This document shows positions 7,893 through 55,657 of a DNA stretch of 64,000 nucleotides, in pieces. Both the position numbers and the translations under genes were made by a program. The notes beneath the pieces are model-generated. The model searched no databases and was not told the DNA's origin. It worked only from the letters and a program-made list of their open reading frames with translations. Positions within the stretch are counted from its first letter, which is position 1. Every line of letters begins with the position of its first letter. The stretch is from the NCBI GenBank assembly GCA_044349155.1, contig JBIKRQ010000001.1, positions 6,418-70,417 of the forward strand, written 5' to 3'. Source of the stretch: Myxococcota bacterium. Its GTDB lineage: Bacteria; Myxococcota; UBA727; VGSZ01.

Positions 7893-8378
7893 CAGATCGT
7901 CGGGGCCCTTCAGCTGCCCGCGCCACTGTTCGGTGCTGACCGCACGCAACGACTTCGGCGACCCCGGCGTGCCGACCACCTCGACAACGTCGGTGCTGAG
8001 CGCGGCGAGTGCGGCTTTCGCTTCTTTCGCTTTGCGAATCGCGATCCGTTGCGCGCGTCCCCGTTGCCACTCGGCGAGGTGTTCGCGGCGCACAGTGAGC
8101 CACTCGGCCTCGTCGTCGCTGATGGTGCCGTCGAGTTCGCGTTGCCGCAGCTCCACACCGCAGGCGATGCGCTGCAGGCGCCCGCCACGACGACGACCCA
8201 GCGGATCGGGCAATGGTGGAACTTCGCCGCGCTCGCGCATCGCGGTGCGTTCAAGCACCACTTCGTCGACGAGCCGCTGCTGCTCGGCCTTGTCGATTCG
8301 CACCGGCGGCGTGCGTGGTCGCCGGCCTCGTTGTGGTGTCTTGTGTCCTGGTGGCGCGAGCTGTGCGGTGGCGTTCAT
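7848..8378 (-). CDS. hypothetical protein with basic N-terminus (176 aa)
   Basis: ATG at 8378 and high GC3 throughout, with no recognisable motif. The last 15 codons are supplied by the 52-bp repeat element. Confidence 0.4.
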   Translation of the reverse strand: MNATAQLAPPGHKTPQRGRRPRTPPVRIDKAEQQRLVDEVVLERTAMRERGEVPPLPDPLGRRRGGRLQRIACGVELRQRELDGTISDDEAEWLTVRREHLAEWQRGRAQRIAIRKAKEAKAALAALSTDVVEVVGTPGSPKSLRAVSTEQWRGQLKGPDDLRALVARVRGIDDTP

Positions 8379-8482
8379 CGTGATCCCCCGTGATCGATCT
8401 GTGGCACTGCGTGTTTCAACACTTTGAAAAGAAACAGGAATTTACGATCGGCTCTGCCTCGGGAACCTGACGTGCAGGGCCC

Positions 8483-8866
8483 ATGTCGGAGCAACACACG
8501 CCCGCAGCGCAGGCTGCGGCGCAGTACCTGGAGGTCTGTATGCAGCTCGTCCTCGAAGCCGGCGCGGTCGGCATCGTCATCGTCGTGGTATTTGTGGCCG
8601 CTCTTGCCGCACGGGTGACGGGGCGCGCGTCGTCGTCGACGCCGTGGGTGCTCGGCCTCTTGTCGCTCGGTGCTGTGGGGCAGGGGCTGGCACAACGCGC
8701 GGTGCGCGACGCCGTGCTGGGCCTCGAGAGCATCGACGTCGACGTCGCCCGCATCGTTGCCGTGGGCAGCGCCGAAGCGAGTGCCAACCTGCTGCTGGCT
8801 GGCAGCGCGGCGTTGGTGGTGCTGCTGGTGGGTCTGGCCCGCGACCGCGCGTCGACGTCTCCCTGA
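8483..8866 (+). CDS. small membrane protein (127 aa, ~3 hydrophobic helices)
   Basis: High GC3, with hydrophobic segments IVIVVVFVAALAA, WVLGLLSLGAV and LLLAGSAALVVLLVGLA. The antisense alternatives are S/T/A/R-rich junk frames. Confidence 0.4.
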   Translation: MSEQHTPAAQAAAQYLEVCMQLVLEAGAVGIVIVVVFVAALAARVTGRASSSTPWVLGLLSLGAVGQGLAQRAVRDAVLGLESIDVDVARIVAVGSAEASANLLLAGSAALVVLLVGLARDRASTSP

Positions 8867-9149
8867 CGTCGAGCACACGAACGTTGTCGGCTTCCTGAAC
8901 ACATGTTTCCCCCTGGTCGGTGTGGGCCCTGACCCCACGCCTGTACCGCCGCAACGCCTCGGCAATTCGTGCACAGGTGGCGCAGGTGTCGTTGTCAGCT
9001 GCGCAGATCCGGCTCGCCGGCATCAGCAGCACCGCGGCGCAGACGCGGCCTGTGGAACGATCTGCGGGAAGACGCGCCTCGGCGACAAAGGCCAGGGCGT
9101 CTCGCTTCGAGACTCAAACTGTCGGGGGCCATTTCTGCGCGGTCCTGCT

Positions 9150-11126
<1,977 letters not shown>

Positions 11127-11249
11127 CCTCGCTGCTGCGGGAACACGCACGTCGGCGGAGACGTTTCACCGCCCGCCGGCAAGAGACTCACGTCGTCGTC
11201 ACACCCCGCAGCGGGGTTCTCGTCGAGACGCACACACAAGAGGCAGCCC

Positions 11250-12203
11250 ATGACCCGTCGTGACCGCATCGTGTTGAACAAGGCTTCGTTGCGCGGCGTG
11301 TGGACCGCGTTGGTGACACCATTCACCGCCGACGACCGTGTCGACGTCGACGCGCTGCGGGCGTTGGTGCGTGAGCAGTTGGCGGCGGGTGTGGCGGGCC
11401 TCGTGCCGTGCGGCACCACGGGCGAGACGGCCACGATGAGCACCGCCGAGCAGGACCTCGTGATCACCACGGTGCTCGACGAGGTGAAGGGGGCGATTCC
11501 GATCGTTGCTGGTGCTGGTGCCAACGACACGAAGAAGGCCATCGAGCGGCACCAGCAGGTGCAGGGCCTCGTGAGCAGCGGCGGCTTCGTCGTCGACGGC
11601 GCGTTGCACGTCACGCCCTGGTACAACAAGCCCACACAAGACGGTTTGTTCGCGCACTTCATGGCCGTGGCGACGTCGGCCGAGCTGCCCATCATTCTGT
11701 ACAACGTGCCCGGCCGTACCGGTGTCGACATGCTGCCCGACACGGTGCTCAAGCTCGTCGTCGCCGACCGCCGCTTCGTGGGCATCAAGGAAGCCACGGG
11801 TTCGGTGCAGCGCAGCCAGGATCTGCTCAACGCATTTCATGCAGCAGGCAAGGGCAACGACGTCGCCATCTTGTCGGGCGACGACGGCCACATCCTCAGC
11901 CTGCTCGCCCTTGGTGGCGATGGCGTGATCAGCGTGACCTCGCACCTGTGCGCGCGCGAACTCGCCCAGATGGTGAAGGCGTTCGACGCTGGCGACATGG
12001 CCACAGCGCAGGCGTTGTCGCGTCGCACGTCGCCACTGTCGAACCACATGTTCTTTCGCAGCAACCCCATCCCCGTGAAAACCGCCCTCGCCATGCGTGG
12101 TCAGGCAGGCATCGCCGCACGGTTCCGCTTGCCGCTGGTGCCGCTGTCGGAGAGCGAGACCGCGGAGTTGAAGCAGCGTTTGACGTCGTCGGGCTGGCTG
12201 TAG
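11250..12203 (+). CDS. dapA: 4-hydroxy-tetrahydrodipicolinate synthase
   Basis: Conserved DapA motifs GVWTALVTPF, PCGTTGE, YNVPGRTG and IKEATG. SD AAGAGG is 6 nt upstream of the ATG. Confidence 0.9.
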   Translation: MTRRDRIVLNKASLRGVWTALVTPFTADDRVDVDALRALVREQLAAGVAGLVPCGTTGETATMSTAEQDLVITTVLDEVKGAIPIVAGAGANDTKKAIERHQQVQGLVSSGGFVVDGALHVTPWYNKPTQDGLFAHFMAVATSAELPIILYNVPGRTGVDMLPDTVLKLVVADRRFVGIKEATGSVQRSQDLLNAFHAAGKGNDVAILSGDDGHILSLLALGGDGVISVTSHLCARELAQMVKAFDAGDMATAQALSRRTSPLSNHMFFRSNPIPVKTALAMRGQAGIAARFRLPLVPLSESETAELKQRLTSSGWL

Positions 12204-12230
12204 CCGCTGACCTGCACTCCGGAGGGGACC

Positions 12231-13022
12231 ATGACTCGCTTGTTTGTCGTCGTTGTTGGCGCGCGTGGTCGCCTTGGTCGGCTGGTGCTCGACGAGGTGC
12301 AGCTGCGCACCGACGTCGACCTCGCTGGTGCCGTGAACCGCTCGGGCCTCGTGTCTGACCCCGACGCGGTCGTGGTGGTGGGCCCCGACATGGTCGATGT
12401 GTTGGCGCGCTGTCCACAGCGGCCGTTGGTGGTGGTCGACGTCGCCACGCCGGGGGCCACGGCCGTGCACGCAGCGGCGTGTGCAGCGGCAGGTGTTCCG
12501 TACGTGTGCGCCACCACGGGCCTGTCGGTCGACGACAAAGCAGCGCTCGTCGCAGCGGCCACGAAGGTGCCGGTGTTGGTGGCGGCGAACCTCTCGCCCG
12601 GTGCGCACCTGGTGGCCTTGCTCGCGCAGCAGGCGGCCCAGGCGATGCCCGAGGCCGACGTCGAGCTCGTCGAGGTGCACCACAAAAAGAAGGTCGATGC
12701 GCCGTCGGGCACGGCCCTCATGCTCGCGGAGGCAGTTGCTGCGGGGCGTGCCTCGAGCAGCATTGTGAGTGGTCGACATGGCGCGAGCGCGCGTCAGCCC
12801 GGCGAGATTGGCATCGCTGCCGTGCGCGGTGGCGACGTCGTGGGCGAACACACCGTCACGTTCTTCGCCGACGGCGAACGCGTCGAACTCGTGCACAAGG
12901 TCTCTGACCGCCGCATCTTCGCCAAAGGGGCCCTCGACGCCGCGACGTGGCTCGTGGGCCGAAGCCCTGGCACCTGGGGCATGCAAGACGTGCTCAAGAG
13001 TCGGTTGTCGTCGACGCTGTGA
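12231..13022 (+). CDS. dapB: 4-hydroxy-tetrahydrodipicolinate reductase
   Basis: Conserved DapB signature VELVEVHHKKKVDAPSGTA, plus EHTVTF. SD GGAGG is 5 nt upstream. It lies 27 nt downstream of dapA. Confidence 0.85.
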   Translation: MTRLFVVVVGARGRLGRLVLDEVQLRTDVDLAGAVNRSGLVSDPDAVVVVGPDMVDVLARCPQRPLVVVDVATPGATAVHAAACAAAGVPYVCATTGLSVDDKAALVAAATKVPVLVAANLSPGAHLVALLAQQAAQAMPEADVELVEVHHKKKVDAPSGTALMLAEAVAAGRASSSIVSGRHGASARQPGEIGIAAVRGGDVVGEHTVTFFADGERVELVHKVSDRRIFAKGALDAATWLVGRSPGTWGMQDVLKSRLSSTL

Positions 13023-13027
13023 GCGCG

Positions 13028-13056
13028 GCCGCTCGTTGATCCATCCAACGAGCGGC
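13028..13056. terminator. bidirectional hairpin (11-bp stem, 7-nt loop) between convergent dapB and the PilX-N gene
   Basis: gccgctcgttg-atccatc-caacgagcggc read from the sequence. There is no U-tract, which is common in high-GC genomes. Confidence 0.45.
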
Positions 13057-13073
13057 GCGGCCCACGCCCATGT

Positions 13074-16000
13074 TCAGCGACGCACCCAGCGCAAGCGGTC
13101 CGTGTCGACCACCAGCGGCGCACCGGGGGCAAGACCGCCCGGGCCGTCGTTGCTCGGGTCGTAGGTGATCGAGCGGCGTGCCGACTCCCAGGCGTATTCA
13201 AATCCGGGATTCAAGCGGCAATCTCGAGATCTTGTTTGTTGGAGGTCCTGGCCACCACAAGCAGAGAACATGTTGGGCATAAAGCCCTGATTCAGGATGT
13301 GCTTGCCGTTGGCTTCTCTGCTGTAGAACATGGCAACCACGCTGCCATTGACAAAGAAGTCGATGTAGGCGGCGTTCGACAGCTGCGCCCAGCTCTCCTG
13401 GAAGCGAAAAATGCCGTAGATACCTTCATCAAGCGACGCATATGTCCAATTGGCGTTGTTGCCAGTGACCGTGTATGAGTCGTTTTTGATGTGATTTACG
13501 CCATAAGATGGATACGCTTGGTCTTGTGGACAGCTCCAGGTCGTGCCGGTCAAAATCGAGAGATTGATGGCCAATTGGTCGCCATTGGCTGCCTGTGGAA
13601 GGTTTGCCAACGCCGGGTCAATCACCGACGGCACGCCCTGGCCATTCGGGTCGATCAAGGCACTGCGGTCGCGGGTGAAGATGACGTCGCTGCCGGTGGT
13701 GAACAGCGCTGTGGTGTCGACAGGAGCGAAACCATTGCTGCCAAGGATGCTCCTGTAGGTGACGTCGAACGCGGCACCACCTGATGCCAGCATGCCGCTC
13801 ACCATGGCGTTGCCGGCGCCCACGGTGCCGCGCTGCGGCTGGACGGGCGGCATGAGCACGGCGGTGGGCGACAGCGTGCCGCTGTACGTGATCGCGGCGA
13901 CGCTGTTGTTGTCGGCGAGGTGGTGGCGGCTGTTGAGCGTGCAGCGCATCCAGTCACGCACCGCTTCGCGATCGTTGCGCGCGGTGGGGGTGTTGCGCGT
14001 CGAGAACGCCGCGTTGCTCGTGTTGAAGTCGAGGAACAGGTCGAGGTCGACGAACGACTCCAGCGGTGCGTACGCGACGAAGGCATTCATCAGCCTGTCG
14101 GCCGTGAGTGCCGTTTCAGCGCCGTCGAGGACGCCGTTGCGGCTGTCGTCGTCAAACAGCGCTGTAGGTGCTGCGGCTCGCAGATCCACTCGCCAATCGC
14201 GCGCCACGGCAGCCGGGGCGTACACGTGCGGGAAGTTGTCGGCAGCGTTGGGAACCGTCGTGCGACGGCGCAGCAAAAGCTCACGGAGCAGGTTGCTGCA
14301 CGGCGCCGGTGATGCGGGCTGCGAGCCAGCCGTGACGACGTAGTCGGTGTCGACCGCACCCCAGGTTTGATTGCCCGGCAAGATCTCGTTGCCGGCAGCG
14401 ACGTTCACCGTCGCGAGCTGCCCCACGGGGGCAAATGGATTGCCCGCGAGCGTGTTGAACTTGTCCGACAGGAACGTGACCGCGTCGCCCGCCACCGACG
14501 CAGGCACCTTGCCCACGGTGTAGCCAGCGCGCGAGGCGTTGAAGCCGCCAACGAGGGTGTTCACGTCGCCTTGCAGGTAGAGCGGGGCGTTGGTCGCAAA
14601 CGTAAAGCCCCGCTCACGACCGCCGGCAAACACCGTCGGCAAACGTTGCGCGTCGCGCAGCAGCACACCGGTTTCGACGAGCTCGTTGCGGCCACGGTCG
14701 ATGACGCCGTCGCCATTGCCCTGGGGCAGGCGCAGCGGGCCATCGCCCAGACCCTGCACACGCGCGGCAGTGGGCGCGCAGAACGCCGACGACGGGTAGT
14801 AGGGATTGTCGAGGCGGGTGGCGCTCGTGACGTTGTCGTTGGCGAGCTGTGCTGGGCTGAGGGCGGAGAAGCCGTAGTTCGTCGACATCTGACCGCGGAG
14901 GTAGTGCGGCAGGTCGAGGAAGTCGGCGTTGCAGTTGCCACCACCATCGAGGGCGTAGAAGGCGGCGTCGGGGTTGAGGCCCCAGTTGTCGACGGGCGCG
15001 TTGAGGGTCTCGCCGAAAAAGATCACGCCATTGAAGCCCGCGGAGTCGAGAAACGGCAGGCAGCGCGTGAGGCGGTGCACGTCGACCACCTGCACGCGAC
15101 GCATGCGTCGATCCTGGAAGTCCCAGAAGCGCTCGTCCTGGATGGCCGGCACGCCATCGCTGTTGGCGACGCTGTTGTCGGTGCCTGGGGCGTAGCCGTA
15201 GTAGACGCACTGGGTCTCGATCGACGTCGGGTCCGACTGCGAGAACCACGGGTCGTAGCTGCCGCTGGCGTTTCTGCGGGTCCACACCCCGTCGACGACG
15301 CGGATGCCGGCGCGGTGCGCGAACTTCACCTGCTTGAGCGCGCCGGTGTCGGCGGGGCGCGGCAGATCGATGACCTGCCAGTCGGGCGAGAGCGGCACGC
15401 CAGCCAGAGGCGTGTTGACGGTGTTGCCGGTGCTCTCGTCGATGCCGCAGGTATCAGGCACGCCCACCACCTTCGCTGTGAACGAGGCGGCGTCGACACC
15501 GGTGGGCAAGCTGAGCTTCTGTGTGCCGTGGGCCTCGTCGCGAATGAACGGCAGGTTCGTCGTCGTGTAGCTGAGCCACGACAGGCCACCGGGGCACGTG
15601 ACCCTGTTCGTTGGAGCGTTGTCGCACGGCAGGGTGACGTCGACGCCACCAGCGTTGTTGGTATCAAGCCCGGGCGCACGACCAGAGACCTGCGACGCTG
15701 TCTGCGAGATCGCGCGCAGGTGCACGTGGCCCGGCGTGGTGAGCAACGGCTTGAGGAACTCGATGTCGTTGGCACCGTCGCCGAAGAAGAAGCCGGTGTT
15801 GCTGTGGATGCGCCCGCTCACCGCTGAGGCTTCGGGGAGGTAGTACTCGATGGGCCCATCCATGAAGAGCGCGAACTGAAACACCGGGATGAGGTTGACC
15901 TGCACCGCGTCGGCGACGGTGGCGCGCGCGTTGCCCACCGACGACGACGCGAGCACCTGTATCGGCAGCTGACTGGCGATGAGGCCGCGATATGGGCCCG

Positions 16001-16379
16001 TGGTCAGCGGTGTTGGCGTGGGCGTTGGTGAAGGTGGCAGCGTCGACGTGGCGCCGGTGTCTTTGTCGAGCAGGTACTTGATGCTGTACTCGGGAAACGA
16101 CGCCGTGGGTGCTGCTGTCGCCAGCTGGGCCAGGGCCGTGGCGGTGAGCGTGGTGACGTCGGGCGTGGGGTTGATGCGCAGCGCTTCGCTGACGAGGCTG
16201 GTGCCCACCGCAACACCCGCTTCTGCTGCGTACAACGCGCGTACCGCGTTCTCCTGCTGACGCCCTTCATCGCGATCGCGCGACGTGGCGTACAGCAAGA
16301 TGCCCGACAACGCCGCGAGGACGATGCCAAACACGAGCACGAAGATGATGGCGTACCCACGAGGTGTGCTGCGGTTCAT
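13074..16379 (-). CDS. large (1,101 aa) type IV pilus protein with a PilX-type pseudopilin N-terminus and a long secreted C-terminal region (possible PilX/PilY1-like tip-associated protein)
   Basis: The start is the internal MNRSTPRGYAIIFVLVFGIVLAALSGILLYATSRDRDEG, which matches the PilX N-terminal pattern. It forms an ATGA stop/start overlap with pilW (16376..16379). The 210-codon upstream extension in the ORF track is Arg/His-rich junk. Confidence 0.7.
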   Translation of the reverse strand: MNRSTPRGYAIIFVLVFGIVLAALSGILLYATSRDRDEGRQQENAVRALYAAEAGVAVGTSLVSEALRINPTPDVTTLTATALAQLATAAPTASFPEYSIKYLLDKDTGATSTLPPSPTPTPTPLTTGPYRGLIASQLPIQVLASSSVGNARATVADAVQVNLIPVFQFALFMDGPIEYYLPEASAVSGRIHSNTGFFFGDGANDIEFLKPLLTTPGHVHLRAISQTASQVSGRAPGLDTNNAGGVDVTLPCDNAPTNRVTCPGGLSWLSYTTTNLPFIRDEAHGTQKLSLPTGVDAASFTAKVVGVPDTCGIDESTGNTVNTPLAGVPLSPDWQVIDLPRPADTGALKQVKFAHRAGIRVVDGVWTRRNASGSYDPWFSQSDPTSIETQCVYYGYAPGTDNSVANSDGVPAIQDERFWDFQDRRMRRVQVVDVHRLTRCLPFLDSAGFNGVIFFGETLNAPVDNWGLNPDAAFYALDGGGNCNADFLDLPHYLRGQMSTNYGFSALSPAQLANDNVTSATRLDNPYYPSSAFCAPTAARVQGLGDGPLRLPQGNGDGVIDRGRNELVETGVLLRDAQRLPTVFAGGRERGFTFATNAPLYLQGDVNTLVGGFNASRAGYTVGKVPASVAGDAVTFLSDKFNTLAGNPFAPVGQLATVNVAAGNEILPGNQTWGAVDTDYVVTAGSQPASPAPCSNLLRELLLRRRTTVPNAADNFPHVYAPAAVARDWRVDLRAAAPTALFDDDSRNGVLDGAETALTADRLMNAFVAYAPLESFVDLDLFLDFNTSNAAFSTRNTPTARNDREAVRDWMRCTLNSRHHLADNNSVAAITYSGTLSPTAVLMPPVQPQRGTVGAGNAMVSGMLASGGAAFDVTYRSILGSNGFAPVDTTALFTTGSDVIFTRDRSALIDPNGQGVPSVIDPALANLPQAANGDQLAINLSILTGTTWSCPQDQAYPSYGVNHIKNDSYTVTGNNANWTYASLDEGIYGIFRFQESWAQLSNAAYIDFFVNGSVVAMFYSREANGKHILNQGFMPNMFSACGGQDLQQTRSRDCRLNPGFEYAWESARRSITYDPSNDGPGGLAPGAPLVVDTDRLRWVRR

Positions 16380-17407
16380 GTGCCGCTCCTGTTGCGTGCT
16401 GCGGCGGTGATGAAGCTGCCGCGGTACCGGCGCTTGCCCGGCAATGCAGCAGTGCTGTGGTTGGAGAACATCGACGGTGGCGGAACGACGAAGCCGTCGG
16501 ACGCGGCCTTGCCAAACGCAAGCAGGCCGATGTGCAGGCCGAGAAAATTGTTGGCGTTCGCGCCCGCGGGCAGCGTGCCACTCAGGCTGTCGGTGGAGGC
16601 GATCTCCGACGCAGCGACGACGCCGTCGCCGTTGATGTCGTACCAGCGCTCCACCTGCAGGTCGGCGATGTTCTCGGCGATGATGGCGCTCGCTCCACCG
16701 TTGACCGAACGTCGCAACGAAGGCGCATCGGTGGTGCCGGCAATCTCGTAGCGAAAGCTGGTGCCAAAGGCGAAGGCGATGGGGTTTATCTCGGTGAGCA
16801 CATCCGCGAGGTTCGTGTGCGTCGTGCCGTACTTGCCGTTGTAGGCGGTGACGGCCTGCGCCCCACCAGCGCCCACCGGCAACACGAGGTTGCAGCTGGC
16901 TGCATTCGAGAGATGCCCCGACACATCGATCGACCGTGAGGCACCGATGACGATGAGGCGGTGGCCGTCGATGTCGGAACTCGAGCACCCCGTGAGTCCG
17001 ATCGGACACACAGCGGGGCTGCCACGAAACGCAACGCTCGACGTGACGCCAGCGGTGCCGGTGATGCCCACGCTGCCACCGCAGACGGACTCGTCACGCT
17101 TGAAGAGTGTGAAGGCATCGGAGCCATCAAGGCCGTCGGCCTCCTCGACGATCACCAGGTCGCCGCTTTGCGACAGCTCGCCGCCGATGCCCTGACTGTC
17201 GCGCAAGATCGCGTGGCTCGCTTGCCGCAAGCGCACCTGCGCATCCGACACGTTCGTCTCTGAACTCAGCCGCGTGACCATCATGACGACGAGCGATGTG
17301 AGTGCCGCTATCAAGATGAGCGCGATGGTTTGGCTGACCATCACCTCGAGCAGCGTCATGCCGCGCGCTGTCGATCGGCGCTCAGCGAATGGTTTGCACG
17401 ATGACAT
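16376..17407 (-). CDS. pilW: type IV pilus assembly protein PilW-like minor pilin
   Basis: MSSCKPFAERRSTARG|MTLLEVMVSQTIALILIAALTSLVVMMVTRL carries the prepilin cleavage/N-methylation motif. GGGAG SD lies 6 nt upstream. Confidence 0.7.
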   Translation of the reverse strand: MSSCKPFAERRSTARGMTLLEVMVSQTIALILIAALTSLVVMMVTRLSSETNVSDAQVRLRQASHAILRDSQGIGGELSQSGDLVIVEEADGLDGSDAFTLFKRDESVCGGSVGITGTAGVTSSVAFRGSPAVCPIGLTGCSSSDIDGHRLIVIGASRSIDVSGHLSNAASCNLVLPVGAGGAQAVTAYNGKYGTTHTNLADVLTEINPIAFAFGTSFRYEIAGTTDAPSLRRSVNGGASAIIAENIADLQVERWYDINGDGVVAASEIASTDSLSGTLPAGANANNFLGLHIGLLAFGKAASDGFVVPPPSMFSNHSTAALPGKRRYRGSFITAAARNRSGT

Positions 17408-17846
17408 GGCGGCTCCCGTTGAGGACTGGGTAGAGCACGACGACGCGGATGTTCTTGAGGTCGGCCGAGGGGCTGCCGTCGGTGACGCGCCAACACAGGT
17501 CGTACACGCCGGCAGCATCGGGGTCGCCGAGCTCGTTGACGCGAAAGTGCTGTGGGCCAGTGGTCATCGTGCACAGCGCGTCGGCGGCAGTGCCGGCACC
17601 TGCGGCGCTGGCGGTGTTGGCGTCGAGGGTGGTGGAGTTCCTGGGGATCGCCGCCAACAACTCCATGCGCTGCTGCGCAATGCTGAAGGCGATCCACTCG
17701 TGCTTCGCGCTGGCCTGGTTCACGACGCTGTCGTGAAAGGCGACAACGGCGGTGCCAACGACGAGGCCACTCAACGCGAGGGCCACCATCACTTCCACCA
17801 GCGAGAACCCGCGACCGCGACGTCGAAACAGACTTCGGTGGTGCAT
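17382..17846 (-). CDS. pilV: type IV pilus minor pilin PilV-like
   Basis: MHHRSLFRRRGRG|FSLVEVMVALALSGLVVGTAVVAF prepilin-type N-terminus. GGGAG SD is present, and the start lies 1 nt after the stop of the upstream pseudopilin gene. Confidence 0.7.
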   Translation of the reverse strand: MHHRSLFRRRGRGFSLVEVMVALALSGLVVGTAVVAFHDSVVNQASAKHEWIAFSIAQQRMELLAAIPRNSTTLDANTASAAGAGTAADALCTMTTGPQHFRVNELGDPDAAGVYDLCWRVTDGSPSADLKNIRVVVLYPVLNGSRHVIVQTIR

Positions 17847-17847
17847 C

Positions 17848-18426
17848 TCAGCTCCCGCGCTTCAGGTCGATGGTGCCGAGTGCGGCGCGCACGCGGAGGT
17901 GGTAGGTGTCGTCGCCAGCCGTGAAGACGATGTCGGCGTCGCTCGACGCGAGGCTGCCCGCCGGACACGCCGTTGGTTCGCCGCCGCCCGCGAGGTGGTG
18001 GTAGCCGTCGCTCGACGCACAAAACCGCAGCACCGCCAACGGTCCCGCGGGGGTGCTGCTCAAGACCGTGCCCGCAGCGTCGAGCAGGTCGAGGCGCACG
18101 AACTTGCCGTTGCCCTGAATGAAGATGTCGCGCGCGGGCGTGAAGCTGTCGATCACCTTGCGAACGACTTCGGCTGGCGCTGTGGCGGGCGAGAAGGTGG
18201 CTGTGCCGAGGGTGACGTGGTCGGGCAGCACCTGCAGCTGCACCGGTGCGTTCTCACGCTGGCTCAGGCCTCGTGCTGCGGTGGTGGCGGCGAGGGCCGA
18301 GCGGGCTGCCTCGGCGGCGCGGTACTGGCGCGCCATCGATGTCAGATTGGGCACGGCGATCGTCGCCAAAATTCCGACGATCGCCACCACGATCATCAGC
18401 TCCAACAACGTCATCGCGCGCATCAT
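17848..18426 (-). CDS. FimT/GspH-like type IV pseudopilin
   Basis: The internal start MMRAMTLLELMIVVAIVGILATIAVPN is a prepilin-like N-terminus with Ala at -1 instead of Gly. The 20-codon upstream extension is rejected. Confidence 0.6.
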   Translation of the reverse strand: MMRAMTLLELMIVVAIVGILATIAVPNLTSMARQYRAAEAARSALAATTAARGLSQRENAPVQLQVLPDHVTLGTATFSPATAPAEVVRKVIDSFTPARDIFIQGNGKFVRLDLLDAAGTVLSSTPAGPLAVLRFCASSDGYHHLAGGGEPTACPAGSLASSDADIVFTAGDDTYHLRVRAALGTIDLKRGS

Positions 18427-18514
18427 CAGCTGACGCTGACAGGTCCGTTGTCGACACCGCGACTGATCCGTTGTGCTGTGGCTCACAACGTCTCGAAAAG
18501 CGGTGAGGTTTGCC

Positions 18515-19744
18515 TCACTTCACGGTGATGCGTGCCCATTTCGTCTTGCCGGCGCGCACTGCGTGGGTGCCGAGGGCGAGTTCGAACTTCACGTCCGACA
18601 CCTTCTCGCCGTTCACGTTCAGGCCGCCCTGCGTGATCAACGCGCGCGCTTTCGACTTGCTCTCCAGCAGACCGGTGTCGGTGAGCGCATCCACAACAGC
18701 GACGGCCGCACTGGTTTCGAGCGTGTAGCTCGGCGCGTCGTCGGGGATGGCGCCCTTGTTCTCCTTCGAGAACAGCCGCAGGAAGTCGGCCACCGCCTGG
18801 TCGCCTGCTTCTTTGCCGTGAAAGCGCGTGACGATTTCGCGCGCGAGCTCGACCTTGGCGTCGCGTGGATGGCCTGCCTTGAGGGCCGCGATCTCGTCGT
18901 CGGTCTTTGCCGACAGCAGCGTGTACATGCGCCACATGTGGGCATCACACACGCTCATCACCTTGCCGAACTGCATCTGCGGCTCGTCGAACACGGCGAT
19001 GGTGTTGCCGAGGGACTTCGACATCTTGGGGCCAACGACGACGCCGTTTTCTTCGCGCGCGTCAGTCCCCTCGAGGATCGGCAGCGTCATGATGCACTGC
19101 GGTTCCTGCCCGTAGCTGCGCATGAGGTCGCGGCCGACGAGGAGGTTGAACTTTTGGTCGGTGCCACCGAGCTCGACGTCGGCCTTGAGCGCGACAGAGT
19201 CGTAGCCCTGCGCGAGCGGGTACAAAAGCTCGTGGAGCGAGATGGGGCGGCCTTCGCTCAAGCGCTTGCTGAAGTCGTCGCGCTCGATCATGCGCGCCAC
19301 CGAGTACTTGCCGGCGAGGCGAATGACGTCGTCGAAGCTCATCTGCCCGAGCCACTCGGAGTTGAAGCGGATGACGGTCTTGCGCTCGTCGAGGATCTTG
19401 AAGACCTGCCGCTTGTAGGTGGCGGCGTTCTGCACGATTTCGTCTTCGGTCAGCGGCGGACGCGTGCTGTTTTTGCCCGTGGGGTCGCCGATGCGCGCGG
19501 TGAAGTCGCCGATGAGAAACACCACCGTGTGGCCGAGCTCTTGAAACTGGCGCAGCTTGTTGATGACGACGGTGTGGCCCAGATGCAGGTCGGGCGAGGT
19601 TGGGTCGGCACCGAGCTTGATGATGAGCGGCTTGTCTTTGGCACGGCTCTCGGTGAGCTTCTTTTTCAGCTCGGCCACCACTTCGACGTCGACACAACCA
19701 CGAGAGAGGATGGCCAACTGTTCTTCGACGGGCGCAAACGGCAT
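18515..19744 (-). CDS. tyrS: tyrosine--tRNA ligase
   Basis: Class I aminoacyl-tRNA synthetase HIGH motif ([10 protein letters not shown]) and KMSKS motif, plus a C-terminal S4-like domain. The start MPFAPVEEQ has GAGGT upstream. The 355-codon upstream extension in the ORF track is rejected. Confidence 0.9.
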
Positions 19745-21131: not shown

Positions 21132-23054
21132 TCACTCGAGGGTGGTGTGTACCGTCGGCACGTCGTCGGTGTGCAGGCTCGTGAAGAACTCCGTCACGAG
21201 TGCTTGCGCGACGGGGTTGTCGAACACGGCGAAGTGGCCGTCGACGGGGTACTGCACGACCGCAGCGGTGAGCGGCGCGTCGTCGTCGGTGCGCAGGTTG
21301 CCGCTCACGGTGGTGTCGCCCACGTCGTCAATACCCAGCAGCGACAGCACTGGCAGCGGTGCTGCAATCGGGCTGGCGAGCGGCACGCTGTACGAGCCCG
21401 CCAGGCCCGCGTGGTTGCGCGGCGGCGTGAACGTGTCGAGCTGCCCCGACGTGACGACGAGGTGCGGCGTATGTCGACCTTCACGATGACGCCACAGCGG
21501 TCCGTAGTTCAGCGGGTCGGCAGGATCGACGAAGGTCTGCAGCAGCGACGGGATCGGATGGAAGGTGTCGATGACGTCGTCAGACGGCATGAGCAGTGCG
21601 GTCTTCAGCACGTCGGCGATCACAATCGGTTCGGTCTTTTCGATCAAGCTCGGCGCGAGGCCCGCACCAGCACCCGACAACAAGGCACCCGTGATGCGGT
21701 CTTCGAGGGCCACAAACAACGCGCCGACAATGCCGCCTTGCGAGTGGCCGAAGTAGGAAAGATGCTCGGCGTCGAAGTGGTGTTCGACGTCGTCAACACC
21801 GCGCACGCGCAGCGTCTGCAGGGCGGTGACCTGCTGCACTTTTTCGAGCGCGCTTTGGCGCCAGTTGTCGCGGCCCGCGAAGGGGTTGAAGAAGTTGAAC
21901 GTGAGGATTTCTTCCTGGCCTGCGCGGTGGCCCAGACGCGTGCGGTGCAGCGGTTCGCTGATGGCCAACATCGCCGAGCCCGCCGCCGTCACGCGCACCG
22001 CTTCGGAGCCAGCACTTCGGCCGAGGCCACTCTCGAGGTCACCGCCGGTGCCGTGCCCGTAGACCACCGCCGGCCACCCTGCAGCGGGCATGTCGCCGCG
22101 CGGGACGGTGAGCACGAACGGCACGACTTCTTCGCGCTGGATCGCCGGCACACCGTCGTCGTCGAAGACGAAGCCGCCGTTGACGCCGTCTTGCGTGTCG
22201 AACGGTGCTGTGCCCGCTTGAAACGCCGCAATCGTGATGGTGCCGTCGAAGACGAGGTACGACAGGCGCGCATCATCGGCGCGTTGCACGACGTCGCTGA
22301 CGGTCGGGACGTAGGCGCGAGCGACGTCGTAGGCCTTCACGAGCCCCGCGGTGCTCTGCTGCGGGGTCACCGATTGCACGAGGGCCACGTCGTAGATGGC
22401 GAGCCCGCTGTCGGTCAGCACCTGGGCCGCGGCGGTGCAGTCGACGTCGCGGTCGAGGGTGGCTGGCAGCGTGCACGACAGCAGCGCGCGCAGGTCGTCT
22501 GACGGGCCGAGGGGCACGCCGTCTGCGCGGTGCACAGTCGACGTCGCCACGAGGGCAAAGCGACCCTGGGGCACAGCGCCGAGCAGCAGGTTCACAGCGA
22601 CGGTCCCGGCGGGCAGAAACGAGGTGCCGTCGGGGTAGTGGCGCCACTCGATGGGGAGGCGGCGGCCGGCAAGCGGGCCATCGAGCTCGACGACAAACAG
22701 GCCGCTGTCGTCGTTCATGCTGGCGGCGGGTGTGGCGGGCAAAGTGCTTTCGTCCACACCGCCATCGACCTTGAAGTAGAGCGTGGACGACCCTGCGAAG
22801 CCGGGGGCGTGGGCGAAGATCGCGAGGTAGTCCTCGAGGGCGGCGGAGTCGTAGGGGTTGGGGAAGGCGCGGAAGTCGAGGGTGCCGTCGTCTTTGACGA
22901 GGAGGTCGGAGGGGTAGGGCGTGTCGAGGAATGCTGTGCGCTCACCGGTGGGGAGCACGAAGGTGACAGGCGCGCGCTCGGGCTCGGGCTCGGGGGTGCA
23001 CGCGATCGCGGGCAGGAGCAGGAACGAAGCGGCAGCAAGCGAGGGGCGCAGCAT
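21132..23054 (-). CDS. secreted lipoprotein with an alpha/beta-hydrolase (GxSxG: GHSQGG) domain, 640 aa
   Basis: The internal start MLRPSLAAASFLLLPAIAC carries a lipobox. The nucleophile-elbow motif GHSQGG is present. The 22-codon upstream extension is rejected. Confidence 0.65.
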   Translation of the reverse strand: MLRPSLAAASFLLLPAIACTPEPEPERAPVTFVLPTGERTAFLDTPYPSDLLVKDDGTLDFRAFPNPYDSAALEDYLAIFAHAPGFAGSSTLYFKVDGGVDESTLPATPAASMNDDSGLFVVELDGPLAGRRLPIEWRHYPDGTSFLPAGTVAVNLLLGAVPQGRFALVATSTVHRADGVPLGPSDDLRALLSCTLPATLDRDVDCTAAAQVLTDSGLAIYDVALVQSVTPQQSTAGLVKAYDVARAYVPTVSDVVQRADDARLSYLVFDGTITIAAFQAGTAPFDTQDGVNGGFVFDDDGVPAIQREEVVPFVLTVPRGDMPAAGWPAVVYGHGTGGDLESGLGRSAGSEAVRVTAAGSAMLAISEPLHRTRLGHRAGQEEILTFNFFNPFAGRDNWRQSALEKVQQVTALQTLRVRGVDDVEHHFDAEHLSYFGHSQGGIVGALFVALEDRITGALLSGAGAGLAPSLIEKTEPIVIADVLKTALLMPSDDVIDTFHPIPSLLQTFVDPADPLNYGPLWRHREGRHTPHLVVTSGQLDTFTPPRNHAGLAGSYSVPLASPIAAPLPVLSLLGIDDVGDTTVSGNLRTDDDAPLTAAVVQYPVDGHFAVFDNPVAQALVTEFFTSLHTDDVPTVHTTLE

Positions 23055-23166
23055 GCGGGGGATGATGGCAGAGCCACGGCACGACGCCAGCCGCACAAAA
23101 CGCAGGTGCCGACGCAACAAACGCTGGACAAGCCCAACAGGTTTGCTAAGAGCACGTCCAGACTTC

Positions 23167-23371: not shown

Positions 23372-24157
23372 ATGCTACGGGGGGGCCCAGCACTCGCGCT
23401 TTGTGCGCTCACATTGTTCGGCTGCGACCGGTCGGTTGCGCCCGACCAGCGTCGTGCAGCCGAAAACGTCATTGGCAAGCTGCCCGCACCGATCCGCGAG
23501 CGGTTCGCCACCGCTGCCGGCCGCCGCGAGATGGAGCGCGCCCTCGACGACAAAGCGCTGCTTGTCGCCGAGGCTCGACGACACGAGTTTCACGAACGTC
23601 CAGACATTCGGACGGCCGTGCAAGAACTTGAGAACAAGTTGATTGTGCAAGCGCTGCTCGAACAAGAGCGCGCCACCGTTTCATCGACAGAGCCAGAACT
23701 TCGGGCGTACTACGACGCCCACCGCGCTGACTTTCGCTTGCCCGCGCGGCGTGAAACCTCGCGCATCCTCGTCGCTGACGCTGACCCAACCGCGGCGCAA
23801 CAGCGGATCGATGGCTTGAAGAAGCGCCTTGCTGCTGGTGAGCCGTTCGCGGTTGTGGCTGCTGCCGGAGACGGTGCCGAGCGCATCACATCGGGGCGCC
23901 TCGGGCACGTGAACCAAGCGCAGGAGGATCGCGCGCTCGCCGACGCTGTCTTCGCCGCCGAGGTGGGCAAGGTGGTTGGCCCGGTGCGCGTCCGCGACGG
24001 CCAGGCCCTGCTGCTGGTCACCGCCGTGCTGCCGGCGTCTGAGCAAGCTTTCGAGGCCGTCCGCGGCGTCGTCGAGAACAAGCTGCAGCCGACGCTGCAG
24101 CGTCGGTCGTTTGAACGTCTGGTGGAACGTCTGCGGACGGAGGCTGACCGTGAGTGA
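23372..24157 (+). CDS. parvulin-type peptidyl-prolyl cis-trans isomerase lipoprotein (SurA/PrsA-like), copy 1
   Basis: MLRGGPALALCALTLFGCDRS carries a lipobox. A SurA-N-like helical segment is followed by a parvulin-like core (RRETSRILV...GDGAERITSGRLGHV...VGKVVGPVRVRDGQALLLV). Its stop TGA at 24155..24157 overlaps the start of the giant gene. Confidence 0.65.
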   Translation: MLRGGPALALCALTLFGCDRSVAPDQRRAAENVIGKLPAPIRERFATAAGRREMERALDDKALLVAEARRHEFHERPDIRTAVQELENKLIVQALLEQERATVSSTEPELRAYYDAHRADFRLPARRETSRILVADADPTAAQQRIDGLKKRLAAGEPFAVVAAAGDGAERITSGRLGHVNQAQEDRALADAVFAAEVGKVVGPVRVRDGQALLLVTAVLPASEQAFEAVRGVVENKLQPTLQRRSFERLVERLRTEADRE

Positions 24158-54935: not shown

Positions 54936-55657
54936 AACGAGCGGCGCTGCTCGCCCTGCTGGCCGCGGTGGGCTGCTCGGGTTCGGGCGGTCCGAACGTC
55001 GCCGGCACGCCTGTCACCCCGGCAGACCTCGCCCTCGCCGAGGGCGCTTCGGCGCGCGCGTCCCTCGTCGACGACCTGCTGCTGCTCCGCCACGCCAAAG
55101 ACACCGACGCGCTTACCGACCCCGAGCTGCAGGCCCGCCTGCACCGTGCTGAACGCCAGCTCGTTGCCCAGCACGTCACCGACACGCTCGGCAAAGACCT
55201 CGACGACGCCACGCTCCGCAAGGCCTTCGAGAGCGAGCGCGCCTCGCTCACCAAGCGTCGCATCCATGTCGCCCACATCGTGCTGCCCGTGGGCAACGAC
55301 GGCGAACTCGTGCTGGCGCGCCTGCGCAGCGGGGCAGCCTTCGCCGACATCGCCCGCGAGGTCTCGCTCGACGGGGCCACGGCCGAGCGCGGCGGCGAGC
55401 TGCCCGAATTGCTCGAGGGGCAGGTCGACCCGGCGTTCTTCGAGGCCGCCGCGGCCCTCAAGGTCGGCGAGGTCAGCAACGTCGTCGTGGTGGGGCCACA
55501 ACGACACATCATCACAGCACTCGCGGAGGCCGACACCGCGACGCCAACTTTCGAAGCAGCCAAAGACGCTCTGCGCGCGCGGCTGCACCAGCAACGTCGA
55601 GCCGAGCTGCTGACGACGCTGCGTGAGCGCTACGGTGTGAAGGCGGGGGATTTGTGA
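54926..55657 (+). CDS. parvulin-type peptidyl-prolyl cis-trans isomerase lipoprotein, copy 2
   Basis: GTG start (54926, or 54932 giving MKRAALLALLAAVGCSGS with a lipobox). The parvulin-like core is KRRIHVAHIVL...VGEVSNVVVVGPQRHIITAL. It overlaps the preceding gene's stop, and its own stop overlaps the GTG start of the next giant gene (GTGA). Confidence 0.6.
   Translation: MPVKRAALLALLAAVGCSGSGGPNVAGTPVTPADLALAEGASARASLVDDLLLLRHAKDTDALTDPELQARLHRAERQLVAQHVTDTLGKDLDDATLRKAFESERASLTKRRIHVAHIVLPVGNDGELVLARLRSGAAFADIAREVSLDGATAERGGELPELLEGQVDPAFFEAAAALKVGEVSNVVVVGPQRHIITALAEADTATPTFEAAKDALRARLHQQRRAELLTTLRERYGVKAGDL

Follow-up and report, generated by a model that had tools for sequence, protein, structure and literature searches.

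A window of 64 kb from an uncultured myxobacterium (Myxococcota), by which we mean the whole stretch of DNA analysed, carries four translationally coupled genes on its minus strand (13074-18426). We consider it fairly probable that they form a stand-alone FimT-PilV-PilW-giant-PilX priming or tip set of the HpsA/ComZ type, where the cap pilin carries a bulky plug or adhesin module. The giant protein encoded by the last gene probably caps a pilus without a separate PilY1.

The four-gene cassette

The first-pass annotation had described a core minor-pilin operon with tight couplings, and the layout was found exactly so (Table 1): TGA-g-ATG joins the FimT-like and PilV-like genes, the PilV-like and PilW-position genes overlap by 26 nt (17382-17407), and the PilW-position and giant genes share ATGA (16376-16379). 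The four ORFs are genuine genes and not chance ORFs, because their GC3 of 0.81-0.87 in the read frame equals the normal GC3 of the genome, three of the four starts follow Shine-Dalgarno-like AGGAG/GGGAG motifs, the giant protein has homologues and the cassette recurs elsewhere. Upstream lies tyrS, and on the other side dapB is convergent. The stop codons of dapB (13022) and the giant gene (13074) are separated by a 51-nt gap with a perfect inverted repeat, which probably serves both genes as a terminator hairpin and lacks a T-run; it was absent from the output of a consensus terminator scan.

Table 1. Cassette genes, giant-protein regions and the downstream repeat, in window positions; a slash marks a putative processing site.
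Feature	Position	Strand	Details
FimT/GspH-like gene	17848..18426	-	192 aa; N-terminus MMRA/MTLLELMIVV; alternative GTG start 18486
PilV-like gene	17382..17846	-	154 aa; ...GRG/FSLVEVMV
PilW-position gene	16376..17407	-	343 aa; ...TARG/MTLLEVMV
Giant gene	13074..16379	-	1,101 aa; MNRSTPRG/YAIIFVLVFGIVLAALSGILLY
Giant protein residues 1-165, pilin-like fold (predicted)	15885..16379	-	short leader, putative prepilin-peptidase site G8/Y9
Residues 166-640, beta-rich core common to superfamily	14460..15884	-	many 3-9-residue strands
Residues 641-885, narrow-family-specific insertion	13725..14459	-	roughly 245 aa; occupancy 0.04-0.15 among 89 distant relatives
Residues 922-1101, HpsA-type C-terminal module	13077..13616	-	BLASTP vs P0013
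Inverted repeat	13028..13056	.	perfect 11 bp, 7-nt loop; read directly from sequence

The narrow family of the giant protein is very rare, with seven sequences, every one inside the same four-gene cassette. The neighbourhoods of these seven cassettes are unrelated. All called cassettes have the ATGA overlap, and the 26-nt overlap is shared by the window, L001, L003/L004, L089 and L090 but not by the P0001 contig or L091. Analogous four-gene sets were found around distant relatives (L002, L085 and L086). No pilY1 accompanied these sets, the seven family cassettes or the other cassette copies examined, and none of the tested large ORFs in the window matched the PilY1 model at Pfam E <= 0.001, in agreement with the first description of the locus as having no separate pilY1.

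A search of all six frames of the window gave just three Glu5-type prepilin N-termini, and Glu5 is present in all three smaller cassette proteins. The FimT-like protein has a putative processing site with Ala(-1), Met(+1) and Glu(+5). The Ala, pointed out earlier, is real, and Ala(-1)/Met(+1) is specific to the window, the orthologues having a canonical RG/FT site; it may impair processing. The GTG start would lengthen the leader to 24 aa. The best NCBIfam matches of this protein, all below the cut-offs, were the N-terminal part of Myxococcus PilA (E 4e-9), GspH TIGR01708 (E 6.8e-8, 32.7 bits) and Verru_Chthon cassette protein D (31 bits), and it passed the cut-off of 16.3 bits for the prepilin domain TIGR02532 with 25.4 bits. 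Its orthologues in L001 and L003 match GspH with E 4e-10 and 2.7e-12.

The PilV/GspI-like protein has the canonical site GRG/FSLVE, scores 23.1 bits with TIGR02532 and weakly matches PilV (E 0.0066) and GspI; its orthologues match PilV TIGR02523 with E 7e-7 and 9e-10. N_methyl, one of the Pfam models proposed for the operon, was matched by it at 31.8 bits (cut-off 21.2) and narrowly missed by the PilW/GspJ-position protein (site TARG/MTLLE) at 19.5 bits, and Pfam PilW, proposed alongside, gave no match for the latter. This protein weakly matches HpsC (E 0.012; the L001 orthologue E 5.7e-6), and its start is backed by a conserved MS[FS][SC]KP leader and the identical 26-nt overlap in L001, L003, L089 and L090. 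The names "PilW" and "FimT" are putative ones, based only on protein size, the order of the genes and weak matches below threshold.

Family and predicted structure of the giant protein

No Pfam or NCBIfam model was matched by the giant protein. For Pfam PilX_N, which the first-pass annotation had made the decisive profile for a PilX N-terminus, the outcome was formally negative, with no match even at E <= 1, and the HpsA model was likewise not reached at E <= 1. Six full-length homologues were found with 48-75% identity. Using the seven full-length family proteins as query, an exhaustive profile search gave 1,593 representative clusters of large proteins, 668 of them at E <= 1e-10, with matches falling in N-terminal, middle and C-terminal stretches. 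In Pfam and NCBIfam scans of 50 sampled relatives, PilX_N was N-terminal in 29 (best 8.5e-12, residues equivalent to about 9-68), GspK was matched by 15, and all 50 matched NCBIfam HpsA NF038301 in the C-terminal module (best 2.6e-25). The HpsA scores were 30-72 bits (cut-off 400), and these matches spanned only about 110 C-terminal positions. Several relatives bear source names such as "PilX N-terminal domain-containing pilus assembly protein" and "Tfp pilus assembly protein PilX". By BLASTP the C-terminus of the giant protein aligns with residues 844-1016 of the relative P0013 (E 4e-10), which cover HpsA profile positions 1333-1444 of 1503. Judged from these matches, the giant protein belongs, as a very divergent member, to a large superfamily with PilX_N at one end and an HpsA-type module at the other, which includes cyanobacterial HpsA ("PilX_EPS") and, by fold, Thermus ComZ; the link to PilX_N itself is only transitive, through the distant relatives.

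What stands of the proposed PilX N-terminus is the cap position in the operon, the Gly(-1) and the missing Glu(+5). In an alignment of 96 sequences, 89 of them distant relatives, Gly(-1) is present in 90 (G8 of the giant protein), position +1 is F, Y, I or V, that is aromatic or aliphatic, and Glu(+5) occurs in none. By sequence, Gly(-1) without Glu(+5) is a class-III-type N-terminus, the GspK/PilX cap signature.

In an AF2 model from a deep alignment (pTM 0.74, with about 400 residues at pLDDT < 50), the chain begins with a pilin fold, continues with a large beta-rich insertion of many short strands and ends in a long strand. Within residues 1-165 the model places two helices, the hydrophobic alpha1 (9-69) and another at 75-89, and long beta-strands at 94-105, 134-148 and 151-165; pLDDT is 86-97 across most of residues 10-165, and a shallow-MSA model gave the same secondary structure. 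The core at 166-640 has an occupancy of 0.5-1.0 among distant relatives and nearly invariant columns, with the motifs LIPVFQF.F (163-172), GR[IV]H.N (189-194), T.A.N.P.Y..GD.N (593-607) and DAVT.LS (632-638); its pLDDT is mostly 72-97 over 166-460, low in 467-568 and high in most of 570-640. The insertion that follows (pLDDT < 50) is conserved within the seven-member family, as in NLLRELxLRR, NAFVAxAPLE and REAxRDWMRCTLN. In the C-terminal module G986, R992, E995, G1012, S1013, R1069, P1085 and P1088 are invariant or nearly so, and the final 12-residue strand 1089-1100 (nt 13080-13115) has a pLDDT around 90. Going by secondary structure only, this strand may complete the N-terminal pilin sheet, and the protein may have a solenoid geometry. 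Twelve Cys, which probably form disulfides, are invariant in the narrow family, and hundreds of other columns are conserved. The three best PDB matches by Foldseek were the three chains of the tip pilin ComZ, a weak match (E about 4e-3, about 690 aligned columns, probability 0.25-0.33, TM 0.12/0.20), and the next one had E 0.75.

A candidate tip complex and its alternatives

In the stand-alone set that we favour, prepilin peptidase would cleave the giant protein after Gly8, and since Glu5 is missing, this subunit could only enter first, at the tip. The PilV-like and PilW-like subunits would dock beneath it, and the FimT-like subunit would connect all of these with the major pilin. The 64-kb window encodes neither an assembly machine nor a major pilin nor a prepilin peptidase; the machine would be encoded elsewhere in the genome and would most likely be type IVa. 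At the filament tip the bulky module would supply the plug and adhesin roles of PilY1/PilC in canonical sets, and the functional reading given before, a tip protein that dispenses with PilY1, is a reasonable one. The data show the gene set and its conservation, the N-terminal signature, the homology to the PilX_N/HpsA superfamily and the lack of PilY1 features; what we infer concerns the tip location, the machine used, the ligand and the replacement of PilY1. The build proposed for the superfamily is a pilin fold interrupted by a big beta-rich module, after which the chain returns as the last beta-strand. The same build is found in PilX homologues of cyanobacteria, HpsA among them, whose genes stand together with those of FimT-PilW-PilV and which have been proposed to replace the PilY1 plug (bioRxiv 10.64898/2026.02.12.705559).

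A pseudopilus like that of type II secretion is unlikely. The four proteins would then be a GspH-I-J-K analogue working as a piston that exports polysaccharide or proteins, with no external adhesive pilus, a role originally suggested for hpsA-D of Nostoc. For the orthologues of the FimT-like protein GspH is the top-scoring family, and for the protein itself it is one of the top-scoring ones; GspI matches the PilV-like proteins and GspK the 15 relatives mentioned above, but no gspG, D, E or F lies in the window and no polysaccharide genes adjoin the cassette. More than 900 extra residues on the cap are hard to square with a short periplasmic piston, and in cyanobacteria long motility pili are now reported to be primed by the Hps-type set (bioRxiv 10.64898/2026.02.12.705559).

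It is very unlikely that the set primes a pilus specialised for competence whose tip DNA receptor would be the giant subunit, the role proposed for ComZ/PilA2 of Thermus. The best PDB fold match, and the only notable one, is ComZ, which binds DNA and has been argued to be a tip pilin (PMC6561018), but the HpsA-type module of the relatives marks in cyanobacteria a motility/EPS and not a competence subfamily (bioRxiv 10.64898/2026.02.12.705559). No com genes are found near the cassette, and the Lys content of the giant protein, 1.0%, seems unlike that expected of a DNA binder.

The odd FimT-like site might reflect loss of function in a decaying cassette or an inactive spare set, which we find highly improbable. 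Ala(-1)/Met(+1) stands where orthologues have Gly/Phe, no Shine-Dalgarno motif precedes either candidate FimT-like start, and the nearest Myxococcales MAGs have the tyrS locus without the cassette. The four ORFs are nevertheless intact with normal GC3, the overlaps are kept exactly as in orthologues, and all 12 Cys and hundreds of further columns of the giant protein are conserved. Ala(-1) is the one substitution reported to permit some prepilin cleavage in Pseudomonas pilin.

Scarcely credible is the PilX/PilY1 fusion suggested in the first-pass annotation, a small PilX set end-to-end with a PilY1/PilC adhesin with a calcium-binding beta-propeller as its C-terminal half: the protein is PilY1-sized, in the PilX position and with no separate pilY1 nearby, but PF05567, proposed for its C-terminal region, gave no match at E <= 1, profile searches of PDB sequences (including PilY1 3HX6) gave none at E <= 10, none of the 82 Foldseek matches was a propeller or a PilY1/PilC structure, the conserved C-terminal module is of HpsA type, and the PilY1 domain was found in none of the roughly 50 sampled relatives. 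In canonical sets beta-strand complementation is the predicted way in which PilY1 binds PilX (PMC13190605), so that a pilin fold, big domain and last strand topologically resemble such a fusion; the predicted order of pilin fold, insertion and last strand is as in ComZ (PMC6561018) and disfavours an end-to-end fusion.

Comparison with known systems

With PilX (PF14341) and GspK (NF037980) the giant protein shares its operon position, a class-III-type N-terminus and the rank of largest subunit of the set, and the N-terminal roughly 50-75 residues of its relatives match these models, yet it fails both itself. Canonical PilX is about 20 kDa and GspK about 35 kDa with an alpha-helical insertion, whereas the extra mass here exceeds 900 residues and is mostly beta or coil.

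The Verru_Chthon cassette A-D (TIGR02596-TIGR02600) also has four genes, for three prepilin-type proteins and one very large protein. This layout is analogous, and the FimT-like protein and its orthologues score 30-34 bits with protein D (cut-off 70). We rejected family identity, as protein A was matched by none of 51 sequences (the query and 50 relatives) at E <= 0.01 and protein C reached E 0.06 only.

ComZ of Thermus thermophilus (PDB 6QVI) is the best fold match of the giant protein, for which a pilin fold at the N-terminus, an extended beta-rich middle and a long last strand are predicted. There is no detectable sequence similarity to go with this weak match, the giant protein is about twice as long, and ComZ is a DNA-binding competence protein, a link that the cassette lacks.

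The Myxococcus xanthus-type fimU-pilV-pilW-pilX-pilY1 clusters belong to the same host phylum, and PilY1/PilC is of similar size class with a probable tip role. Translational coupling of minor-pilin genes is found in Myxococcota pilY1 clusters also (PMC13190605, PMC7541494), and those described so far "each contain one pilY1 gene" (PMC13190605). In contrast, the present cassette has a giant cap pilin instead of pilY1, and this protein lacks the PilY1 propeller domain by sequence and by fold.

For HpsA and HpsB-D the comparison covered NCBIfam NF038301-NF038304, the Nostoc punctiforme hps locus and Synechocystis PilA9-PilA12. Unlike these, the cassette has a host in Myxococcota and not in cyanobacteria and no adjacent hps glycosyltransferase genes, and its giant protein, which does not reach the HpsA model, has the family insertion and the 12 invariant Cys. 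Both sets consist of three small pseudopilins and one very large PilX-position protein with no PilY1 present, the PilW-position protein weakly matches HpsC, and the C-terminal module is shared, with the relatives matching the HpsA profile at about 1330-1444 and the giant protein aligning there. For the large subunit of the HpsA type, a role as plug and adhesin at the tip has been proposed (bioRxiv 10.64898/2026.02.12.705559).

The minor-pilin cassette and its surroundings

The four coupled minus-strand genes all lie in the coding frame of the genome, with a GC3 of 0.81-0.87 (window G+C 63-69%), and constitute a minor-pilin operon as the first-pass annotation had stated. The junctions described there (TGA-g-ATG, a 26-nt overlap and ATGA) can be read directly from the sequence. 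The last three starts each have an AGGAG/GGGAG motif in front of them; no Shine-Dalgarno motif was found before either candidate start of the FimT-like gene (ATG 18426 and GTG 18486). Upstream of the cassette lies tyrS, itself preceded by the genes for 5-formyltetrahydrofolate cyclo-ligase and a cobalamin adenosyltransferase, and downstream the convergent dapB is followed by dapA. The hairpin between the convergent stops was not reported by the consensus promoter and terminator scan, which was uninformative.

Coordinates of the cassette genes and of other features in the window and in two related contigs (arrow, predicted cleavage site)
Feature	Sequence	Coordinates	Strand	Length	Remarks
Cassette	window	13074-18426	-		four ORFs
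FimT/GspH-like gene	window	17848..18426	-	192 aa	N-terminus MMRA↓MTLLELMIVV
PilV-like gene	window	17382..17846	-	154 aa	N-terminus GRG↓FSLVEVMV
PilW-position gene	window	16376..17407	-	343 aa	N-terminus TARG↓MTLLEVMV
Giant cap gene	window	13074..16379	-	1,101 aa	N-terminus MNRSTPRG↓YAIIFVLVFGIVLAALSGILLY
Hairpin	window	13028..13056			perfect 11-bp stem, 7-nt loop, no T-run; between the stops of the giant gene and dapB
Zinc-ribbon/TPR protein	window	9117..11126	+
Candidate serine hydrolase	window	21132..23120	-	662 aa
Probable giant surface adhesin	window	23976..53726	+	~9,916 aa	single ORF
DUF6531-containing ORF	window	55627..64000	+	at least 2,791 aa	runs past the window end
Homologous cassette	L001	2650..8225			FimT-like gene behind the giant gene, not first
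Two consecutive minor-pilin sets	L002 (forest soil)	8267..18708			three HpsA-like giant paralogues

In a six-frame scan of the 64-kb window, the prepilin N-terminus G/A↓[FM]xxxE was found only in the three small cassette proteins. The PilV-like protein scored above the cut-offs of both prepilin-motif models, with 31.8 bits for PF07963 (cut-off 21.2) and 23.1 bits for TIGR02532 (cut-off 16.3). On the same scales the FimT-like protein reached 25.4 bits for TIGR02532 and 20.5 bits for PF07963, and the PilW-position protein, in which the G↓[FM]xxxE motif is visible, reached 19.5 bits for PF07963, slightly under the cut-off. By this N_methyl PF07963/TIGR02532 motif test we classify the three small gene products as predicted type IV prepilin-type proteins. 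All three keep Glu5, and their sub-threshold matches are to GspH, PilV/GspI and HpsC. The 343-aa protein gave no match to PilW (PF16074) at E <= 1; the label 'PilW' is based on its size, the gene order and weak N-terminal matches to HpsC. The alanine noted earlier at position -1 of the FimT-like protein is indeed there, in the RA↓MT of the predicted cleavage site (18412..18426, -), whereas the orthologues in two contigs with a homologous cassette (L001 and L003) show RG↓FT, the canonical form, that is Gly/Phe against Ala(-1)/Met(+1) in the window. Genes for PilB/PilC/PilMNOPQ/PilT or a PilA major pilin were found neither in the 64-kb window nor in the flanks of related loci.

Among the other large ORFs of the window, the one of ~9,916 aa (the length of the open reading frame; the actual start codon may differ) contains the Ig-like modules Big_7 (five stretches), IPT/TIG (12 stretches) and Big_5 along with LVIVD and bacterial TSP3 repeats, and its C-terminus carries four tandem ~24-aa repeats containing QPT[VI]VRF; a role as giant surface adhesin is probable. 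The ORF at the window end combines TSP3 repeats, Glucodextran_B, CarboxypepD_reg, Ig-like domains and DUF6531, the last of which is typical of RHS/polymorphic-toxin proteins. The 662-aa protein has no Pfam match, and its GHSQGG motif is suggestive of a serine hydrolase. The zinc-ribbon/TPR protein has an N-terminal Zn_ribbon_4 domain, C-terminal TPR repeats and a long Ala/Pro/Thr-rich linker with repeated PTTPATP units.

Conservation of the cassette in a narrow family

A search of 5.8 billion protein clusters returned only six full-length homologues of the giant protein, 48-75% identical to it and all metagenome-derived. In 7/7 members of this narrow family the giant gene shares an operon with the H-, I- and J-type partners. 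The proteins of the homologous cassettes measure 188-194, 141-156, 326-354 and 1,101-1,193 aa, the 4-nt overlap is identical in all of these cassettes, and the 26-nt overlap in most. The gene order on L001 differs, hence the four-gene set can be permuted without losing any gene. The housekeeping neighbours are different each time, and no pilY1, major pilin or assembly machine adjoins the cassette in the flanks of the family members. Pattern scans found no further member in GTDB species genomes or JGI metagenome contigs; as they used family-specific peptides, they are uninformative on the wider superfamily. Taken together, the homologues, the conservation of the cassette and the scans indicate that the narrow family is real, constrained and rare.

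The TyrS encoded next to the cassette is closest to those of uncultured Myxococcales MAGs (83%, 76% and 63% identity), which assigns the window to an uncultured lineage of Myxococcales/Myxococcota. Downstream of tyrS, the nearest of these MAGs (loci L005 and L006) have no cassette, no dapB and no detectable gene in common with the window. The order tyrS-cassette-dapB is therefore lineage-specific, or the result of rearrangement or insertion.

Cap signature, superfamily membership and predicted fold of the giant protein

The giant protein gave no match at E <= 1 to any Pfam or NCBIfam model, PilX_N, PilY1, HpsA and GspK included, and nothing relevant among PDB sequences at E <= 10 with either a 7-sequence or a 96-sequence profile. 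Three runs of a word-indexed protein search found only 10-16 proteins, and an exhaustive search was needed to reach the superfamily. Run as an HMM search with the profile of the seven sequences, it detected 1,593 representative clusters at E <= 1e-3, of which 668 reached E <= 1e-10. The majority of these relatives are 550-1,200 aa long and match in their N-terminal 220-370 residues, in the middle and at the C-terminus; several carry source names such as 'PilX N-terminal domain-containing pilus assembly protein [Terriglobales]' or 'Tfp pilus assembly protein PilX'.

The PilX N-terminus proposed in the first-pass annotation did not hold as a direct match, failure against the PilX_N profile being formally one of the outcomes which that annotation had named as refuting its reading; it survives as a homology recovered through intermediates. 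PilX_N (PF14341), a 51-position N-terminal profile with a gathering score of 25.5 bits, is matched by 29 of 50 sampled relatives (best 8.5e-12, 43 bits) at about residues 9-68, a stretch homologous to residues 8-60 of the giant protein; with the query itself unmatched, the link is transitive only. GspK is matched by 15 of the 50, via their N-termini. The HpsA model (NF038301, 'hormogonium polysaccharide biosynthesis protein HpsA') is matched by all 50, with a best E-value of 2.6e-25. These matches score ~30-72 bits where this equivalog model demands at least 400 bits over its 1,503 positions, and they always fall on profile positions ~1330-1444, hence we read them as a common C-terminal module and not as equivalog membership, the query again being without a match. 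Residues 922-1101 of the giant protein align at E 4e-10 to the HpsA-matching stretch of P0013, one of the distant relatives, and TDRLRW[VF]RR ends both proteins; the N-terminal 230 residues align at E 5e-51. In all, 633 of its 1,101 residues are in columns shared with distant relatives. By this transitive sequence homology the giant protein belongs to the PilX_N/HpsA superfamily. Residues ~641-885 form an insertion confined to the narrow family. The invariance of all 12 cysteines in that family speaks for a protein that lies outside the cytoplasm and is disulfide-bonded.

The N-terminus substantiates the cap position assigned earlier. Gly(-1), here G8, is invariant in the narrow family and present in 90 of 96 sequences of the superfamily alignment, in which position +1 is F/Y/I/V; at +5 the giant protein has Phe and the commonest residues are A/T/V/L/M/I, with Glu not among them. 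Such features mark the GspK/PilX cap class: a class III signal with Gly(-1), a hydrophobic alpha1, no Glu(+5), in contrast to the other subunits of the set, and H-/I-/J-type partners in the operon.

AlphaFold gave an unusable model past residue 165 with 12 sequences (pLDDT 36). With 96 sequences the mean pLDDT was 68 and the pTM 0.74; residues 10-460, most of 570-640, ~930-1020 and ~1065-1101 are modelled confidently, and 467-568 and 645-906 are of low confidence. The predicted order is an alpha1 helix of 60 residues (9-69), a helix at 75-89, long strands at 94-105, 134-148 and 151-165, many strands of 3-9 residues mid-chain, and a final 12-residue strand at 1089-1100. The three best PDB fold matches found by Foldseek were the three ComZ chains of Thermus thermophilus (E ~4e-3 over ~690 aligned columns, next match E 0.75), a weak similarity with TM 0.12/0.20; a search of viral structures gave nothing. 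The modelled secondary structure, with long strands at 94-165, short ones mid-chain and a long last one, fits the ComZ-type pattern. As the fold match is weak and the agreement is one of secondary structure only, we go no further than to call a ComZ-type topology compatible with these data.

Proposed assembly, rival readings and the PilY1 question

A tip role for the giant protein, as suggested before, seems likely. Prepilin peptidase would cut it at the putative site G8↓Y9, and the giant subunit would assemble first, with the PilV-like, PilW-like and FimT-like subunits stacking under it on a type IVa machine whose genes lie elsewhere; its inserted module might then serve as both plug and adhesin. 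Alternatively the cassette could build a T2SS-like export pseudopilus, which we consider unlikely. That it encodes a competence pilus whose tip is a DNA receptor appears quite improbable, and that it is a decaying set more improbable still.

The first-pass annotation had read the giant protein as a PilX-PilY1 fusion. The hallmark of PilY1/PilC (PF05567, PDB 3HX6) is a beta-propeller of seven blades at the C-terminus, which includes a calcium-binding loop. The giant protein had no match to PF05567 at E <= 1, and no PilY1, PilC or propeller was among its Foldseek matches, residues 645-906 being poorly modelled. As neither its sequence nor its predicted fold resembles PilY1 in any part and its conserved C-terminal module is of HpsA type, we reject the fusion, the least probable of all the readings. 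The absence of a nearby pilY1 was rightly noted, since the tested large ORFs of the window gave no match to the PilY1 model (Pfam, E <= 0.001). The chain of pilin fold, big module and last strand might be likened to a strand-complemented PilX-PilY1 pair in a single chain, a resemblance that is not evidence of common origin.

Comparison with known systems

Capping and adhesion of type IV filaments without PilY1/PilC have been addressed only recently, for ComZ in 2019 and in a cyanobacterial preprint in 2026. To these the present locus adds, from an uncultured lineage of myxobacteria, a FimT–PilV–PilW set with a giant cap pilin that has a beta-rich module inserted and a C-terminus of HpsA type. 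The profile ties this protein to more than 1,000 large 'PilX_N' proteins of other phyla, mostly unnamed, and thereby provides a sequence handle for searching genomes without pilY1, one that combines the C-terminal module with the Gly(-1)/no-Glu5 signature and the conserved motifs. In practical terms the gain is improved annotation and a hypothesis open to test, and no new principle. Further, on the basis of the ~1,600 representative clusters, which include Terriglobales and a Zixibacteria MAG, we speculate, as a doubtful but possible reading, that PilY1-independent priming sets with a giant HpsA/ComZ-type cap pilin as plug and adhesin are a widespread second solution across many phyla and not a cyanobacterial or Thermus peculiarity, and that the Cys-rich ~245-aa insertion would be a new tip module for ligand binding, priming a second, specialised filament on a shared type IVa machine.

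The Zixibacteria MAG, the forest-soil contig and further metagenome contigs carry distant relatives in the same stand-alone four-gene layout. The giant paralogues of the forest-soil contig measure 733, 790 and 789 aa, and two of them are adjacent. The Verru_Chthon cassette (TIGR02596-02600) was considered and rejected: protein D reached 31 bits against a cut-off of 70, protein C an E-value of 0.06, and protein A had no match in any of 51 sequences (the query and 50 relatives).

In Myxococcota, the described minor-pilin clusters each have one pilY1, and docking of PilY1 on PilX via beta-strand complementation has been predicted; the pilY1 cluster is reported absent from a few genomes (PMC13190605), with Sandaracinus, Haliangium and Chondromyces crocatus among those reported to be without it. 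For ComZ, a place at the pilus tip has been argued on steric grounds (PMC6561018). A 2026 preprint classifying cyanobacterial pilins (bioRxiv 10.64898/2026.02.12.705559) describes all PilX homologues there as having a pilin-plus-solenoid build, with a PilX_EPS subfamily homologous to HpsA and a FimT-PilW-PilV-PilX core set often in one locus; PilY1 is generally absent, and its authors propose that the solenoid fills the plug role. Compared with these cyanobacterial PilX sets on the one hand and the pilY1-bearing Myxococcota clusters on the other, we read the locus in the window as a myxobacterial instance of the HpsA/ComZ-type design. Both gene set and architecture are thus of known kinds, and large PilX_N proteins are annotated as such in public data. 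New are a very divergent and rare family outside all curated models, its Cys-rich lineage-specific insertion, the presence of an HpsA/ComZ-type set in Myxococcota without pilY1, and signs that the design occurs widely beyond cyanobacteria.
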